Source: a virus
Taxonomy: Duplodnaviria > Heunggongvirae > Uroviricota > Caudoviricetes
IMG/VR virus record: IMGVR_UViG_3300033148_007488
Location: 1-64,000 of that record
Reading direction: 5' to 3' (one strand)
DNA length: 64,000 nucleotides
Shown here: in pieces, positions 28,149 through 36,159 of the stretch
Layout of the letters: the number at the start of each line of letters is the position of its first letter
Numbering within the stretch: the first letter of the stretch is position 1
Notes under the pieces: generated by a model
The model's database searches: none
Told to the model about the DNA's origin: nothing
The model's input: the letters and a program-made list of their open reading frames with translations, nothing else
Position numbers and translations under genes: made by a program

Positions 28149-28330
28149 GATGGTTAAAATTGAAAATTTCTGGGGTCTTCATATTGGATGTCTTTTTCGG
28201 CCATTAAATTTAAAAGAAAGAATAAAACCTTTCTCATGATTTTTAATTTTGCGGAATATGTGTTTTCAAGTTTGTTAACCTTTTTTATCAAGTTTGATAT
28301 TATGCTTCTTATTTTAGCTTTCATCTTAAT

Positions 28331-28600
28331 CTCCAGTTAGTGGTTTCGTTAAATCTTTGTGACTCAACTTAACATTAGTAGATCATAGTAAATTTACTTA
28401 TGCAAGTTTTATTTGAATTTATCCACGAGTTTTTTTAATAAAACATTCGCTGGATCATCTGGCTTCCTGTCTTCCCAATTTCTCAGGAGCTTTGTAGCAA
28501 AAGATTTGAATCCCATGTCAAGACCTGCTTCTTTGACCATGATATCCATTCTTTGATTTTTACGCTTTATAAGTTCTTTTTTAGGTATTGGCATTGTTTC
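28331..28600. repeat. Copy 2 of the ~270-bp duplicated segment.
   Basis: See 19207..19480. Confidence 0.55.
28409..28594 (-). CDS. Small basic protein (61 aa), paralog of 19286..19474.
   Basis: It has the near-identical sequence and sits inside a ~270-bp duplicated segment. Confidence 0.5.
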   Translation of the reverse strand: MPIPKKELIKRKNQRMDIMVKEAGLDMGFKSFATKLLRNWEDRKPDDPANVLLKKLVDKFK

Positions 28601-28668
28601 CTTTTGTTAAGCTCCCATTAAGAGAACTGGTTTGTTTTTTGGTTAGCATTTCATTAAAAAAAACTTGT

Positions 28669-29322
28669 TCATGCTGTTTTTTTGTTCCTGTAATCTGCGA
28701 TAATCTTTTCTACGTTATCGATTCCATTGTTAATAGCTTGAAAAGCTATACTGTTTCTTGCAACCATACTTTTCACGTATGCCTGATTTTTAGGCGAGAA
28801 CAGTTTTTCAGTTTCATCACCGATAATTTCTTTTTCCACGGCATTGTATAATCTTTTTGCTTTAGGGTTCATTTCACCATGTCGAGTTCTATTATCGGTG
28901 TATTTTTTTTCGCTAAAAAACGACATTGCAATATTACATGGAACATAATAGTCGACTTTATCTCTGAATACACGCCCATAGATGGGGATCAACGGGACAG
29001 ATTGAGCACAAATAAACTGTGCTCCGTTGATAGTATAGTACCAACTGTCTCTTGATTTCGCTAGTTTAAGATTTAGACCTTTCGACATTAAGAAAAGATT
29101 CACATACAGCAATGCTTCAATGTTTGTTTCTGTCTTTTCGCATATATCATTATACATCAGTTCAAAAAGAACAGCATGTTTCATGGACCTATCCTTTTTT
29201 ACTAATTTCTTTTCGTGATCAAGAATTTTAGACAGTAATTCTTTGACTTCTTTTTGTTCGTTTGTGAATTTCATCTTCATCCCCCATTTGTTTGTTTGTT
29301 TCGCTTCGTCTGATTGACTCAA
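28669..29322 (-). CDS. Hypothetical protein.
   Basis: ORF of 217 aa. It is divergent from paralog D across an intergenic region holding a 30-bp palindrome. Confidence 0.5.
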   Translation of the reverse strand: MSQSDEAKQTNKWGMKMKFTNEQKEVKELLSKILDHEKKLVKKDRSMKHAVLFELMYNDICEKTETNIEALLYVNLFLMSKGLNLKLAKSRDSWYYTINGAQFICAQSVPLIPIYGRVFRDKVDYYVPCNIAMSFFSEKKYTDNRTRHGEMNPKAKRLYNAVEKEIIGDETEKLFSPKNQAYVKSMVARNSIAFQAINNGIDNVEKIIADYRNKKTA

Positions 29323-29451: not shown

Positions 29452-31359
29452 ATGATACCCAGCCTACTTCTCTTCAGTCCATTCCAGAAAGGATATGTTC
29501 AGGCCCACACACGTAAAGGAAAAAGAGTAGGTCCTTACTTCACCAAAAGACAGCCCGGACAAGTCCAAGAAAAGCATACCAGAGACCGCTTTATTGACCA
29601 CGACAAAGCCAGTGCATCCAAAGCCCATGAAGAACTTGAATCACTTAAAGCCAAGCACCAAGAATTACTCAATGCAGCCAAGAAGCATCATGATGAAATA
29701 AAAAGCAAAGGACCAGTTGAAGGCGAAAGGGTAGACCACAAAACAAAACTTTCTCATCTCAAAGCAGAAATCAAGAATCAAAAGACTCACATAGACAACC
29801 ATTCCAGAAAACAAAAACTGATCAAGGACCGCTACAAAATAAGCAGCAAGCAGATTACCCAAAGAAAATCAAAGTCTGATCTGGAAAGAAAAATAGCTTC
29901 CCACTCAGACGGACAGAAAAAAACTATTCGTGCAATTCACGAAGCCCATAAAAAAGGTGAATCAAAACTTGAGCCTGGCAGAATTCTTAAAGGCAAAGAT
30001 AAAGACCATATTTATCTTGAAACAAAGCACAAGGACACAGGAGAAGCGCACCATATCGCCATTCATAAAGATGGTTCAGTTAAGGACCCCAATATTCTCC
30101 ATGGTGGAAAATTCGATTCAAAAACACTCAAAGAAGATGCCAAGCCAAAGAAGATTGTAGTTAAGTCTGAACCTAAAAAAGGAGTGACGGTTAAGAAACA
30201 AGAGCCATTTAAAAAAGTTGAGAAATCTGAGGCTAAGAAGATCGGTGTTAAGAAACAAGAGGAGAAAAAACAGACAAGATCGCAGGCCATGAAAGGCAAT
30301 AAGAATGCGTGGAAGGGAGGACCGAAGGATGAACCGAAAAAAGTCAAAGTTAAAACAAAAGAGGGATTGACAGCAAAAACTGGAACTTTAACATCAGGTG
30401 AAAAATCATCTTTGAGTTGGTATTCAGGAGATGGATTCCATAAATTAAATGAATATTTAAGAAAAGATAATGCATCTAAAAATAAGAGTCTTGATAAATT
30501 TACAGATAGTTTAAATAGTGCAATTAGTAAAAGTGAGATCACTAAAGATACAACGCTATATAGAGGCATAAACAATGATGAGTTAACAAAAAAATTCCAA
30601 TCAGTTAAAACTGGAAATAAGATTCCTGTTAGTTCGTTTCAAAGTACATCTTCTAGCGAACGAGCTTTATTTGCTCATGCAGGACTTGTAGGTGTTGCAT
30701 TGAAAATTAATGTTAAAAAAGGAACAAACATAGCTGATCTTGCAGGCAGCGGCACAGCTATGGACGCTAAAGAACAAGAAATCCTGTTGCCAAATAAAGG
30801 GCATTATGTGGTTAAAAGTGTAAGCAAACCAGAAAAAGGTGAATTAGGAAGAACTATAGTTGAAGTAGATTATATTCAAGATGAACAGGAAAAGAATGAA
30901 GATAAAAAAACTTCTAAAAAAGTTGAGAAATCTGAGGCTAAAAAGATTGTTGTTAAAAAATTAGATCAGGAGAAAAAAGAAACCAGGCTACCTGAAATAA
31001 AAAAAGGCCATTATATAAAGCGCAAGATATCGGGGCTCGGAGACAGACCTTCACCTTGGGAATATGTTTCATCTACTGTTAAAAACGGATTCATGGTTGA
31101 GGGTAGACCTTTTACGGTTCCGTTTTCAGATATTATAAGCGTTAGAACAGGAAACCCAGCACTTGGCCGTGGTGACGTGATTTATGATGATGGAAGCATC
31201 CAATCTAGGGTATTAAAGAAATCCATACCCACAACATCCAAACAATTAGAAAACTTATTGCAAGAAGAAAGACTGTTCAAATCCCTCAAATCTCCAGAGG
31301 AAATAAAACTCCTCAAGGAGAAGAGGAAACGAAGAAAGAAACGTAAAAATAAAAGGTAG
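29452..31359 (+). CDS. Paralog D of the packaged/ejected family. It carries the N-terminal module and a C-terminal mono-ADP-ribosyltransferase domain (R-S-E class, C3/Vip2/Alt-like).
   Basis: The N-terminus is MIPSLLLFSPFQKGYVQAHTRKGKRVGPYFTKRQ. The ART motifs, in order, are 'SLSWYSGDGFHKLNEYLRK', 'TLYRG' (Arg codon 30562-30564), 'FQSTSSSER' (STS at 30643-30651) and 'AKEQEILLP' (EQE at 30772-30780). The ART domain is flanked by 45-bp direct repeats encoding KKVEKSEAKKI.VKK. Confidence 0.7.
   Translation: MIPSLLLFSPFQKGYVQAHTRKGKRVGPYFTKRQPGQVQEKHTRDRFIDHDKASASKAHEELESLKAKHQELLNAAKKHHDEIKSKGPVEGERVDHKTKLSHLKAEIKNQKTHIDNHSRKQKLIKDRYKISSKQITQRKSKSDLERKIASHSDGQKKTIRAIHEAHKKGESKLEPGRILKGKDKDHIYLETKHKDTGEAHHIAIHKDGSVKDPNILHGGKFDSKTLKEDAKPKKIVVKSEPKKGVTVKKQEPFKKVEKSEAKKIGVKKQEEKKQTRSQAMKGNKNAWKGGPKDEPKKVKVKTKEGLTAKTGTLTSGEKSSLSWYSGDGFHKLNEYLRKDNASKNKSLDKFTDSLNSAISKSEITKDTTLYRGINNDELTKKFQSVKTGNKIPVSSFQSTSSSERALFAHAGLVGVALKINVKKGTNIADLAGSGTAMDAKEQEILLPNKGHYVVKSVSKPEKGELGRTIVEVDYIQDEQEKNEDKKTSKKVEKSEAKKIVVKKLDQEKKETRLPEIKKGHYIKRKISGLGDRPSPWEYVSSTVKNGFMVEGRPFTVPFSDIISVRTGNPALGRGDVIYDDGSIQSRVLKKSIPTTSKQLENLLQEERLFKSLKSPEEIKLLKEKRKRRKKRKNKR
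30205..30280 (+). repeat. Left copy of a ~45-bp direct repeat (AAAAAAGTTGAGAAATCTGAGGCTAAGAAGATCGGTGTTAAGAAA) flanking the ART domain. The right copy lies at 30919..30963.
   Basis: The protein repeat is KKVEKSEAKKIGVKK / KKVEKSEAKKIVVKK. Confidence 0.5.
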
Positions 31360-31360
31360 T

Positions 31361-31708
31361 ATGACAAAAGAAGATATTGCAAAAATAGCTCATGAAATAA
31401 ATAGGGCATATTGTAAAAGCATAAAAGACCATTCTCAAAAAATATGGAAATGTGCGCCTGAATGGCAAAGGAAAAGTGCTATAACTGGAGTGGAATTCCA
31501 TATTGACAACCCAGGGGCTGGAGTTGACGATTCTCACAAAAGTTGGCTGAAAGAGAAATATGATGATGGCTGGAAATATGGTCCGGTAAAAGACTCGTCA
31601 AAAAAAGAACATCCTTGCTGTGTCCCCTATGAAGAATTACCTGTTGAACAACAGGCAAAAGATTATTTATTCAGGGAAATAGTTCACCAACTTAAAACAT
31701 ATTTATAA
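31361..31708 (+). CDS. Small protein with a RyR-like (ryanodine-receptor domain family) motif, immediately downstream of the ART gene.
   Basis: '...DGWKYGPVKDSSKKEHPCCVPYEELPVEQQAKDYLF' fits the RyR-domain pattern I recall (GW.yG...d...K.hP.LvPy.eLpe.eK..dr). Its start lies 2 nt after the ART stop. Confidence 0.45.
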   Translation: MTKEDIAKIAHEINRAYCKSIKDHSQKIWKCAPEWQRKSAITGVEFHIDNPGAGVDDSHKSWLKEKYDDGWKYGPVKDSSKKEHPCCVPYEELPVEQQAKDYLFREIVHQLKTYL

Positions 31709-34172: not shown

Positions 34173-34511
34173 TTATCCAGTGACAGGGTTCTTTTTCCAA
34201 TCTCTTTTTTTGACTTTATCCCAAGTTAATTGGACAGCTTCTTCAAAGTCAATCCCAACTGAAGAACAATACCCAGATAGGAAAATAACAATATCACCAA
34301 CTGCATCAAAAGCTTTTTCTTTGTGATCAGTGTCAGTTCTAATTTGAAGTTCACTTTTAAGATGAGCGTGAGAGAGTTCGCCTAGTTCTTCCATTACTCC
34401 CATAATGAACATCCATGGTTTAGGATCATCGAAATTGGCTTTAACCCATTCTTTGTGTTCTGATTGTAGCTTTTTAAGCATATGAGCCATCCGCTTTATG
34501 GATTTCAGCAC
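34173..34511 (-). CDS. MazG-like nucleoside triphosphate pyrophosphohydrolase.
   Basis: It has the 'MEELGELSHA' (EE.GE) and 'EKAFDAVGDIVIFL' motifs typical of all-alpha MazG NTP-PPases. Confidence 0.55.
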   Translation of the reverse strand: MLKSIKRMAHMLKKLQSEHKEWVKANFDDPKPWMFIMGVMEELGELSHAHLKSELQIRTDTDHKEKAFDAVGDIVIFLSGYCSSVGIDFEEAVQLTWDKVKKRDWKKNPVTG

Positions 34512-34854
34512 CTTTTAATGGTGGGTTAAAGACACATATAAGAACTGTATCTTCTTCTGCTTTGAATTTATGGTCATCGTGTTTATCCAATATATAAACT
34601 GTATCAGGTGTTATCTCAAAATAGTCCCCATTCTCATTATTATATAGGTGTCCTTTACCTTTAATGCAATAGCATGTTTCAAGATGGTTTTTATAATGCC
34701 AATATTGCCATTCTCCTTTTGGGATCTCAGTTTTCGTTAATGAATATCCCATCCCATCTGATTCTAAAAGTATTCTGTTGCTGATAAATCCACCATTAGG
34801 GCAAAAAACTTGTCTATCTGTTCCTTTTAGATCTTTAATTTTTACGAATTTCAT
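34474..34854 (-). CDS. EctC-like cupin (ectoine synthase family).
   Basis: 'DRQVFCPNGGFISNRILLESDGMGYSLTKTEIPKGEWQYWHYKNHLETCYCIKGKGHL...ILDKHDDHKFKAEEDTVLICVFNPPLKGAEIHKADGSYA' parallels EctC as I remember it ('[58 protein letters not shown]...[39 protein letters not shown]'). Confidence 0.6.
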   Translation of the reverse strand: MKFVKIKDLKGTDRQVFCPNGGFISNRILLESDGMGYSLTKTEIPKGEWQYWHYKNHLETCYCIKGKGHLYNNENGDYFEITPDTVYILDKHDDHKFKAEEDTVLICVFNPPLKGAEIHKADGSYA

Positions 34855-34860
34855 ATTTAC

Positions 34861-36159
34861 CTATAATTTTTTATATTTTTCCATTATCGCCCGTTGTCGA
34901 ATTGCCTGTTCTTTTGTTGGTGCAAGTCCCATATATTTACAGGTGTGATCATTCTTTAGAATTGTTAAAGCAAAGCGTTTCCATGATGCTACGTCACCAT
35001 TATTACAGCTTAACATGTCCAAGTGGTCTGGAAACTTTCTTATTCTAATTCTAGTTAAATTTTTCCTGCCATGATGAGTAAGCCCATTCTCAAAAAACTC
35101 TATTTTATGTTCTTTTAATTCATTGATTATTTTTTCTGGTAGGCCACGCCCTGTCCTGCCCCAAACTTTGAACGATTGGACAAAGCGCATCTTAAAATTT
35201 TCAGCGACTTCCTTTGGCAGAGTGTCTAAAAGAAATTTAGTGAATGACTTCCAAGTATGACCATCAGGAAGTTTAAATGTTCTATAACTCAATTGTTTTC
35301 CATAAGTTGCAATAAAATTTGCACCTTGCACCCTGGCACATAATTTAGCCCATACATGAGGATCAATCACCCTATACAATCCAAGACTTGACTTTGACTC
35401 ACTCATAAATGGTGAAGCAACTCTCATGCTACCCACTGGAATGCCAGCTTTATAGAAAATGTCGTAAAGTTCGTTGTATTCCCATTCAAACTTTGCATTT
35501 GCCACCCAAATATCGTCAGTTTTCCAATCATATATAGGGTAGCAATTATAGACTGTTTTTGTATTTTTCTTAGTCCACATTTGACCTTTGAGAATTGTTT
35601 TTCTTGTATTCATGATAGCCCTGAACCTGTTTAGGCTTTCAGAAGTTCTAATCCCTATAAGGCATGCTGTTTGTTCTCCTTGCCCGTACCAATCACCAAA
35701 TTTATCCCAAAATTCATCGTAGTTCATGTCTTCATAAAAGAAATCAAATTTATGATTGTTAATGTTTACAATATAGTCATCTTTAGGCATTGGCTTAATC
35801 CATCTTTCTTTATCTCTTTCTCCCCAACATTGCCATTCAACAGCATAAGCACTTACCGTACATGGCAGTGTAATAGGTAGGCAACACCAATAAACATCAA
35901 GTAAGTCTAAATTGGCTCTGACAATAGAGTGCATGAAAGCAAGGGAATATTCATAATTTGCTTCATTATCTAATATCATGACACCTATCTTTTTAGTGAT
36001 ATTGTTTTTTCGCATGTAATCTATGAAAAGGTTGAGCATCACTCCACTGTCTTTTCCACCTGAAAAAGAGATATAAATTTTAGGAAAATTATCAAATATA
36101 AATTTTATTCTTTCTTGGCTTGCATCATAAACATTAATTTCTGTATTATATCTTCGCAT
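34861..36159 (-). CDS. PAPS-reductase/PP-loop ATP pyrophosphatase superfamily protein with a C-terminal extension (IbrA/DndC-like architecture).
   Basis: The PP-loop is 'IYISFSGGKDSGVML'. It is 432 aa, in an operon with a ParB-like gene, as in the ibrAB pairs described in E. coli and in phages. Confidence 0.6.
   Translation of the reverse strand: MRRYNTEINVYDASQERIKFIFDNFPKIYISFSGGKDSGVMLNLFIDYMRKNNITKKIGVMILDNEANYEYSLAFMHSIVRANLDLLDVYWCCLPITLPCTVSAYAVEWQCWGERDKERWIKPMPKDDYIVNINNHKFDFFYEDMNYDEFWDKFGDWYGQGEQTACLIGIRTSESLNRFRAIMNTRKTILKGQMWTKKNTKTVYNCYPIYDWKTDDIWVANAKFEWEYNELYDIFYKAGIPVGSMRVASPFMSESKSSLGLYRVIDPHVWAKLCARVQGANFIATYGKQLSYRTFKLPDGHTWKSFTKFLLDTLPKEVAENFKMRFVQSFKVWGRTGRGLPEKIINELKEHKIEFFENGLTHHGRKNLTRIRIRKFPDHLDMLSCNNGDVASWKRFALTILKNDHTCKYMGLAPTKEQAIRQRAIMEKYKKL

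Follow-up and report, generated by a model that had tools for sequence, protein, structure and literature searches.

In-frame direct repeats in the lysine-rich linkers of a modular phage effector gene bracket its ADP-ribosyltransferase domain

The DNA analyzed here, hereafter the window, is a 64,000-nucleotide (nt) stretch (positions 1 to 64,000) of the viral record IMGVR_UViG_3300033148_007488, and its major head, sheath, minor tail and primase-like genes are those of a tailed phage. One of its open reading frames (ORFs), 29452-31359, encodes a protein of 635 amino acids (aa), to which a protein in the JGI collection (P0001) is identical. In order, the protein comprises an N-terminal module, a lysine-rich linker with a short conserved motif that we call the GNKNA motif, an ADP-ribosyltransferase (ART) effector domain, a second linker, an orphan region (region Y) and a basic C-terminal tail. 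Two in-frame direct repeats, 30210-30279 and 30915-30987, bracket the ART domain. An earlier reading of this sequence (the original prediction) had viewed them as the borders of a possible recombination cassette. We think it probable that the repeats are instead a duplicated, lineage-specific, disordered Lys-rich linker, and that they are a scar of module shuffling in a tailed-phage effector of the polyvalent type, described for phages and conjugative elements (Iyer, Burroughs, Anand, de Souza and Aravind 2017, J Bacteriol; PMC5512222), rather than dedicated recombination sites.

An ART domain between two in-frame repeats

The two repeat copies share 27 nt exactly and 39 of 42 nt in their core, and they are ~80% identical over 75 nt with one 3-nt indel. 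A repeat finder reported 61 nt at 84% identity (30210-30270 versus 30915-30975, spacing 705) and, beyond the indel, a further 19 nt (30260-30278 versus 30968-30986, spacing 708). The 45-nt sequence quoted in the original prediction was found at 30211-30255 and 30916-30960, a few bases away from the 30205-30250 and 30919-30963 it had given, with 41/45 positions identical and both copies in the same frame. Both encode KKVEKSEAKKI(G/V)VKK, just as had been claimed: the translations are KKVEKSEAKKIGVKK (aa 254-268) and KKVEKSEAKKIVVKK (aa 489-503), within a repeat unit of ~24 aa, KKVEKSEAKKI[G/V]VKK[-Q/LDQ]E[E]KK[Q/E]TR. A shorter exact repeat, the 15-nt GTTAAGAAACAAGAG, occurs at 30190 and 30247.

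Similarity of this kind might be expected of an ordinary low-complexity linker, in which a biased composition and the use of few K, V and E codons could make any two segments look alike. Linker 1 is built from short periodic units (PKKIVVK and VTVKKQE in its first part, and KKVEKSE), K-rich linkers occur in all relatives, and the closest of these, L001, has a 17-nt exact repeat encoding KKIVVK. However, the longest exact repeat in the window gene is 27 nt, whereas none of 500 codon shuffles of the gene gave one longer than 16 nt, and a 26-mer of the repeat, which occurs exactly twice in the 64-kb window, gave 0 matches in 100 shuffles of the window. Codons were identical at 14 of 19 positions encoding the same amino acid, where codon usage predicted 9.6 (P = 0.03); the first 8 codons of both copies are all identical, non-lysine codons (GTT GAG, TCT GAG GCT) included. 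A comparable nucleotide repeat was present in 0/10 relatives' genes. Chance similarity of the two repeats is thereby excluded and, given the shuffle tests and codon identities, Lys-rich composition is not the source of the match, which makes the low-complexity explanation very improbable. Nor do the relatives present an ordinary Lys-rich linker around invariant content, the outcome that would have told against the original prediction; what lies between their linkers varies.

The repeats had no Rfam match at E <= 0.1, no enrichment of promoter-like sites and no meaningful terminator. An antisense ORF (30063-30575, 170 aa) was judged to be a spurious mirror of the Lys-rich coding sequence. Programmed frameshifting at AAAAAAG runs was considered and dropped: the A-runs are in-frame Lys codons, and the heptamer lies outside the slippery register.

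In an AlphaFold2 (AF2) model, both repeats fall in coil-like segments (aa 213-332 and 492-595) with a predicted local distance difference test (pLDDT) score below 50. Around these linkers are two confidently modeled folds, the N-terminal module (aa 12-212, pLDDT ~80-94), which combines beta strands, long helices and a beta sheet and has no Pfam family match, and the ART domain (aa 335-476). The prediction that an ART domain lies between the repeats was borne out by a match to PF03496 (E = 9.2e-17; 61.4 bits against a cutoff of 23.4; aa 312-471, nt 30385-30864) in which the R, STS and ExE motifs are intact: the arginine of LYRG (aa 369-372), STS (aa 398-400) within QSTS (aa 397-400), and EQE (aa 441-443). 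The closest solved relatives are Vip2/C3-type toxins, and HopU1 is a further relative in the PDB. Foldseek matches of the ART part included phage fusions of MuF/head-morphogenesis proteins with ART domains, Alt (Alt phiAS5) and ModB, and a PHROG match (phrog_832) was weak and partial (E = 3.3e-4, 86 aa).

The ART block also stands apart in composition. The G+C content at third codon positions (GC3) of aa 299-487 was 0.155, versus 0.289 expected from the amino-acid composition and window codon usage (z = -4.07), and that of the N-terminal module and linker 1 was above expectation (+2.3 and +2.4). Windows of equal size with GC3 as low as this numbered 0/273 across 13 other ORFs, and a change-point scan selected aa 299-505 (twice the log-likelihood difference, 2dLL, 30.9 against a null maximum of 21.5). 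These observations support the ART block as a horizontally acquired module. On the left, the foreign block begins where the GNKNA motif and the homology to L001 end; on the right, it stops where repeat 2 starts. The original prediction had described the ART domain as a discrete module bounded by homologous linker, and this is supported, but repeat 1 does not itself mark the border of the cassette: the foreign sequence begins ~21 codons further on.

Table 1. Features of the effector gene and its tandem paralog (window positions).
Feature	Position	Strand	Basis
Modular (polyvalent-type) phage effector gene, 635 aa	29452..31359	+	ORF; homolog family
Conserved N-terminal module (aa 1-212)	29452..30087	+	50-89% identity, 12 relatives; pLDDT ~80-94
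Linker 1, first part (aa 213-253), Lys-rich, predicted disordered	30088..30210	+	pLDDT <50
Repeat copy 1: KKVEKSEAKKIGVKKQEEKKQTR (aa 254-276)	30211..30279	+	Repeat search; shuffle and codon tests
Conserved linker (GNKNA) motif SQAMKGNKNAWKGGPKDEPKK (aa 277-298)	30280..30345	+	Last nucleotide homology to L001
AT-rich (low GC3) ART module and acidic tail QDEQEKNEDKKTS	30346..30915	+	Pfam, GC3, change-point, Foldseek
ART catalytic motifs	R 30556-30567; STS 30640-30651; ExE 30772-30780	+	Sequence; alignment with Vip2 motifs
Repeat copy 2: KKVEKSEAKKIVVKKLDQEKKETR (aa 489-512)	30916..30987	+	Repeat search; codon test; L001 comparison
Orphan region Y (aa 513-588), low model confidence	30988..31215	+	Homolog searches; AF2 model
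C-terminal helical basic tail module (KKSIPTTSKQLENLLQEE...KEKRKRRKKRKNKR), aa 589-635	31216..31356	+	Homologs; model
Tandem paralog, 431 aa	26853..28148	+	~150 aa of N-terminal module, 39% aa identity

Module variation among relatives

Searches among 5.8 billion clusters returned 20 homologs of the window protein, and metagenome and viral scans added a few more loci. At the DNA level, a blastn search of 50,697 phage records with the gene was negative; a single-protein scan of IMG/VR found no relatives, and an alignment scan with the N-terminal module recovered only 2 viral and 3 metagenome loci, from which we conclude that the family is rare. All of its members (the 20 homologs and L007-L012) have the N-terminal module (~220 aa) in common, followed by Lys-rich linkers and then by differing modules. 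Among the latter are a ddrB-like ParB domain (PF18763, E ~1e-29), ART-PolyVal (PF18760), the exoenzyme-type ART of the window protein (PF03496; P0003 and P0093), a second ART type (P0005, P0008 and P0009), RadC/JAB (the L008 and L010 proteins), a HExxH peptidase-like module (P0004 and P0014; a weak Peptidase_Mx match, with no significant Pfam match in P0004) and, in the N-terminal extension of P0019, InPase (PF18823). The C-terminus takes one of two alternative forms, a ParB arm ending ...ASF or a basic helical tail, KEKRKRRKKRKxKx. At least 10 architectures occur among ~25 family members.

The exoenzyme-type ART is 57-58% identical in P0003 and P0093, where it stands in simpler arrangements of N-terminal module, linker, ART and tail; because such forms exist, the ART is a portable module within the family. 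The same ART subtype is carried by a MuF-type protein, P0018 (48% ART identity, a MuF-like N-terminus and the motif HPGDTSLGATAKNIVHCKCAL). A search with the ART alone found no donor and added one family member, P0093. The basic tail module is common to P0003, P0010-13, P0015, P0093 and the L010 protein. This tail (...KSLKSPEEIKLLKEKRKRRKKRKNKR) is portable in its own right; it ends many proteins of the family and also the otherwise unrelated 112-aa P0021. In a search with the C-terminal 151 aa, region Y had no detectable homolog (only the last ~48 aa matched, in P0021), and no parent with the form N-terminal module, linker, Y and tail was found. When region Y was compared with the small domains of other family proteins (domains X of L001 and L010) and with those of P0022 and P0023, no resemblance was detected either.

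The closest relative, L001 (protein P0002), is collinear with the window gene at the nucleotide level, at 81% identity, from the start codon into repeat 1. At this point a 90-aa domain is present in L001, flanked by KKIVVKK (aa 264-270) and KKIVVEK (aa 359-365), where the window gene has a single KKIGVKK. Homology resumes at 76% through QEEKKQTR and the GNKNA motif, and it stops at aa 297, past which L001 encodes ParB and the window gene the ART. The first half of repeat 1 is orthologous to the first of these L001 linkers (linker A) and its second half resembles the other (linker B); the second half of repeat 2 is 91.5% identical to linker B in nucleotides, compared with only ~75% for repeat 1. 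Where the window protein has the repeated peptide, L001 has KKVDKPETKETKKIVVKK. Two histories fit this pattern. In one, the ART block entered the same slot between KKIVVKK elements that holds the small domain in L001; in the other, the window gene lost its small domain and received an entirely new downstream part, from the end of the GNKNA motif onward. Either history would put the breakpoints in linkers.

These comparisons support the proposal that the family evolves by domain shuffling, since modules differ at equivalent linkers among the relatives, L001 included. Alignment to relatives, which the original prediction had suggested as a check, revealed content that varies between linkers across the family; for these exact repeats no such variant was found.

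A metagenomic assembly could in principle produce a similar picture by fusing two strain variants through their common 27-mer. The contig has been seen once (P0001, 1 contig), a compositional break between the repeats would also fit two joined genomes, and the repeat copies differ from each other (80-84% identity) about as much as the window does from L001 (81%). Against this, real reads must contain both the adjacency of the ART to repeat 2 and that of repeat 1, GNKNA motif and ART; both junctions preserve the reading frame, the ORF ends in the normal C-terminal tail of the family, and the flanking synteny is normal. Modern assemblers, moreover, use word lengths greater than a 27-nt exact repeat. 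We therefore regard an assembly artifact as highly unlikely.

The locus is syntenic in all relatives, with genes of 183, 102 and 88 aa, an optional paralog, the polyvalent gene, and genes for a 139-aa and a 552-aa tail-fiber-like protein. In the window the paralog lies 1.3 kb upstream of the ART gene, to which it is 78% identical in nucleotides over the first 98 nt. Both paralogs start with MIPSxLLFSPFQKGxVxAHTRKGKxVGPYFTKRQ, and this common N-terminus could be a virion-targeting signal. The pair is also found in L002 and L010. The 1.3-kb block of minus-strand ORFs between the two genes (28154-29322) is absent in most relatives.

Origin of the repeats and the conserved linker motif

In the history that we favor, effector modules would be gained, lost and exchanged by recombination in linker-coding DNA. 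This DNA is alike among alleles and paralogs, the tandem paralog 1.3 kb upstream included, and would serve as exchange joints; the event that brought in the AT-rich foreign ART module would have left it flanked by two linker copies. The repeated part is lineage-specific and near-identical at the DNA level, which points to a comparatively recent duplication and not to a constraint on the peptide. A degenerate DNA pattern for KKVEKSEAKKI gave 0 matches in viral contigs and genome contigs.

As a secondary consequence, a direct repeat of 27-42 nt could allow a rare in-frame deletion of 705 nt. Its predicted product is an ART-less protein of 400 aa, still in frame, in which the N-terminal module and linker are followed by region Y and the tail, with the N-module side joined to the exit of repeat 2 at ...CCATTTAAAAAAGTTGAGAAATCTGAGGCTAAAAAGATTGTTGTT... 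The suggestion that the repeats permit precise deletion of the effector domain is in line with this predicted product; the deletion variant itself was not observed, and no relative with the same repeats and another insert, or none, was found.

Several observations weigh against this history. First, pairs of linkers within relatives' genes are 0.54-0.71 alike in DNA, compared with a mean of 0.65 between genomes, and have few synonymous codons in common; because their similarity does not exceed the between-genome level, it points to selection on the peptide and not to ongoing recombination. The DNA similarity that gene conversion or ongoing recombination would predict was not seen in the relatives' linkers, which are not kept as recombination substrates. 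Second, a nucleotide-level internal repeat is absent from all the other family genes compared, so that the window gene stands alone. Third, no relative is near enough to show the parental sequences, the nearest being 81% identical in nucleotides, and both insertion of the ART block and a swap of the downstream part would fit. Fourth, the identity of the ART to those of P0003 and P0093 is about the same as that of the N-terminal module (~61%), so the ART could be old in part of the family and the GC3 anomaly otherwise caused. The offset between repeat 1 and the left edge of the foreign block belongs here as well. Finally, an exact match of 27 nt is close to the shortest length at which homologous recombination is efficient.

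Dedicated, programmed cassette exchange, of the kind seen in shufflons, integrons or polymorphic toxins, would require cassettes stored elsewhere. In favor of such a system, the tandem paralog 1.3 kb upstream has its 5' end in common with the window gene, and recombinational cassette variability has been raised for one polyvalent kinase locus (PMC5512222). Shufflon- and integron-like systems have an adjacent recombinase and many sites with stored cassettes, whereas the window has two repeat copies only, both of them direct, in-frame coding sequence. No site-specific recombinase (integrase or invertase) was present among the ORFs at 24-36 kb, and no orphan effector cassette preceded by a linker was seen. 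The idea of a recombination cassette in this sense is not supported, and we would be surprised to see such a system established here. Overall, the interpretation put forward in the original prediction is partly supported.

The GNKNA motif presents a different pattern from that of the repeats. Two or three copies of ExEKKxRSxAMKGNKNAxKGGP bracket inserted modules in P0004, P0008, P0009, the L008 protein and the more distant P0022-P0025, and in these relatives the motif is often preceded by PKKVVVKK; an inserted module flanked by two motif copies is seen in five relatives. A profile of the motif identified 75 representative large phage-type proteins (among 1.84 billion) with a median length of ~900 aa; 20/71 newly recovered proteins have at least 2 copies, and the maximum is 10, in one protein of 3046 aa. 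They include giants with SNF2 and methylase domains and RadC/DUF3560, LPD1 and ddrB-ParB proteins, and the motif lies between unrelated domains. No Pfam model covers it, and no mention of it was found in the literature searched or in PMC5512222, where linkers are not mentioned either (0 occurrences). One of the bracketed proteins, P0008 (L005, 5001-6503), terminates directly behind its second copy of the motif (...KGGPKNEK*), with 222 nt of contig left; the impression is of a protein that was severed from its downstream module at the linker, or whose module became an ORF of its own there.

Such conservation raises an alternative for the repeats themselves, namely that selection keeps the linker peptide on both sides of the ART, as a site at which a phage or host protease would free the ART domain after packaging or injection, or as a tether that binds DNA or the virion, and that the DNA similarity is incidental. 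The GNKNA motif is strongly conserved as a peptide across genomes as synonymous sites diverge, it recurs between domains in the proteins recovered by its profile, and two copies bracket the inserted enzyme in P0008, P0009, P0004 and the L008 protein; furthermore, proteolytic processing is established for P1 DdrB and DarA (PMC5512222). The repeated part, KKVEKSEAKKIxVKK..., is however not conserved: L001 has a different peptide at that position, and the peptide was not found elsewhere in viral or genome contigs. Copy 2 is also without the GNKNA motif and ends ...EKKETR, with LPE following, and the 27 identical nucleotides, including all synonymous sites, are left unexplained. A processing or tethering role is plausible for the GNKNA motif, but it explains the specific repeat poorly, and as an account of the repeat we consider it unlikely.

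Duplication of the linker during module shuffling thus remains our preferred account of the repeat. A broader proposal, which we offer tentatively and think doubtful at present, would unite the two sets of observations: PKKVVVKK followed by ExEKKNRSxAMKGNKNAxKGGP may constitute a joint between modules that is widespread in injected phage polyvalent proteins and has so far gone undescribed. It would act both as an effector-exchange junction, similar to the VENN/pre-toxin junction of polymorphic toxins, and as a processing or tethering signal that frees or positions each effector once injected, and the repeat in the window would be a freshly made example.

Comparison with known systems

The family of the window protein resembles polyvalent proteins in several respects. 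A single phage polypeptide strings together effector domains (ART, ART-PolyVal, ddrB-ParB, RadC/JAB, zincin-like peptidase, InPase and LPD1), architectures vary widely among relatives, and the gene lies near virion genes. Two-domain combinations of the polyvalent type occur in the homologs (an ART-like domain, RadC or the HExxH module, each with ddrB-ParB), and families defined in polyvalent proteins (PF18763, PF18760, PF18823 and PF18796) occur in homologs that have the N-terminal module or the linker motif. The window protein differs in having a single recognizable enzymatic domain (PF03496), and the N-terminal module, basic tail and linker motifs (PKKVVVKK; ExEKKNRSxAMKGNKNAxKGGP) of the family are without a Pfam match. 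Delivery together with DNA is the proposed function of polyvalent proteins (PMC5512222), and contextual support for it here comes from the conserved position of the locus upstream of the 552-aa tail-fiber-like gene, in a tailed phage.

Phage T4 offers a simpler parallel, as T4 Alt is an ADP-ribosyltransferase that is packaged in the capsid and injected. In both Alt and the window protein, an R-S-E type ART is one part of a larger phage protein whose N-terminal part is non-catalytic. In sequence, the likeness of the window protein to the Alt/RNA polymerase ADP-ribosylase family is confined to the weak, partial phrog_832 match, Alt and ModB being matched at the level of the fold; its nearest solved relatives are Vip2/C3-like, and its N-terminal module is unrelated. 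By analogy with T4 Alt, the window protein may be packaged and injected, with its ART acting on host targets.

In polymorphic toxins (CdiA-CT after VENN; MuF-toxin fusions) a constant N-terminal delivery part is joined to variable toxins, with exchange at a short conserved peptide. The window family also joins a constant N-terminal part to variable modules, and its ART subtype is the one on the MuF-like P0018. Its modules, by contrast, occupy internal positions in addition to the C-terminus, and one protein can string several of them together. The window protein had no Phage_Mu_F match in Pfam, and downstream of the ART gene neither an immunity gene nor an array of orphan cassettes was identified. 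A likeness to DdrB and DarB, the antirestriction proteins inside the head of phage P1, is seen in the relatives of the window protein that end in a ddrB-like ParB domain (PF18763); in P1 it is this domain that characterizes a protein processed and packaged in the head (PMC5512222). In place of ParB, the window protein has the ART, orphan region and basic tail.

Other genes near these loci are recorded here as observations in their own right. Directly downstream of the ART gene, at 31361-31708 (+), is a gene for a 115-aa RyR-domain protein (PF02026, E = 4e-11), and relatives have an ORF of ~55 aa at this position. An ectoine-synthase-like cupin (34474-34854, minus strand; PF06339, E = 9e-44) adjoins a PAPS-reductase/DUF3440 protein (34861-36159, minus strand), and PAPS-reductase genes are again neighbors of the polyvalent gene in L002 and L012. 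In L005, the family gene is preceded, at a distance of ~4 kb, by one for a second, very large polyvalent protein (1-1171; 1653 aa; InPase and LPD1), showing that some such phages carry several polyvalent genes.

The conserved linker motif is a more interesting by-product than the repeat. If the linkers are only scars, the finding represents an ordinary case of mosaic phage gene evolution. Polyvalent proteins are regarded as multi-tool payloads with which phages and plasmids disarm host defenses after injection. On how their domain combinations arise, this locus provides a sequence-level snapshot of module shuffling, in which a foreign ART lies between linkers that are probably duplicated and relatives differ at the same linkers. 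Should the proposal of a common module joint prove true, the linkers would give a handle on module boundaries in uncharacterized giant phage proteins and would be natural plug-in points for engineering phage-delivered effectors.

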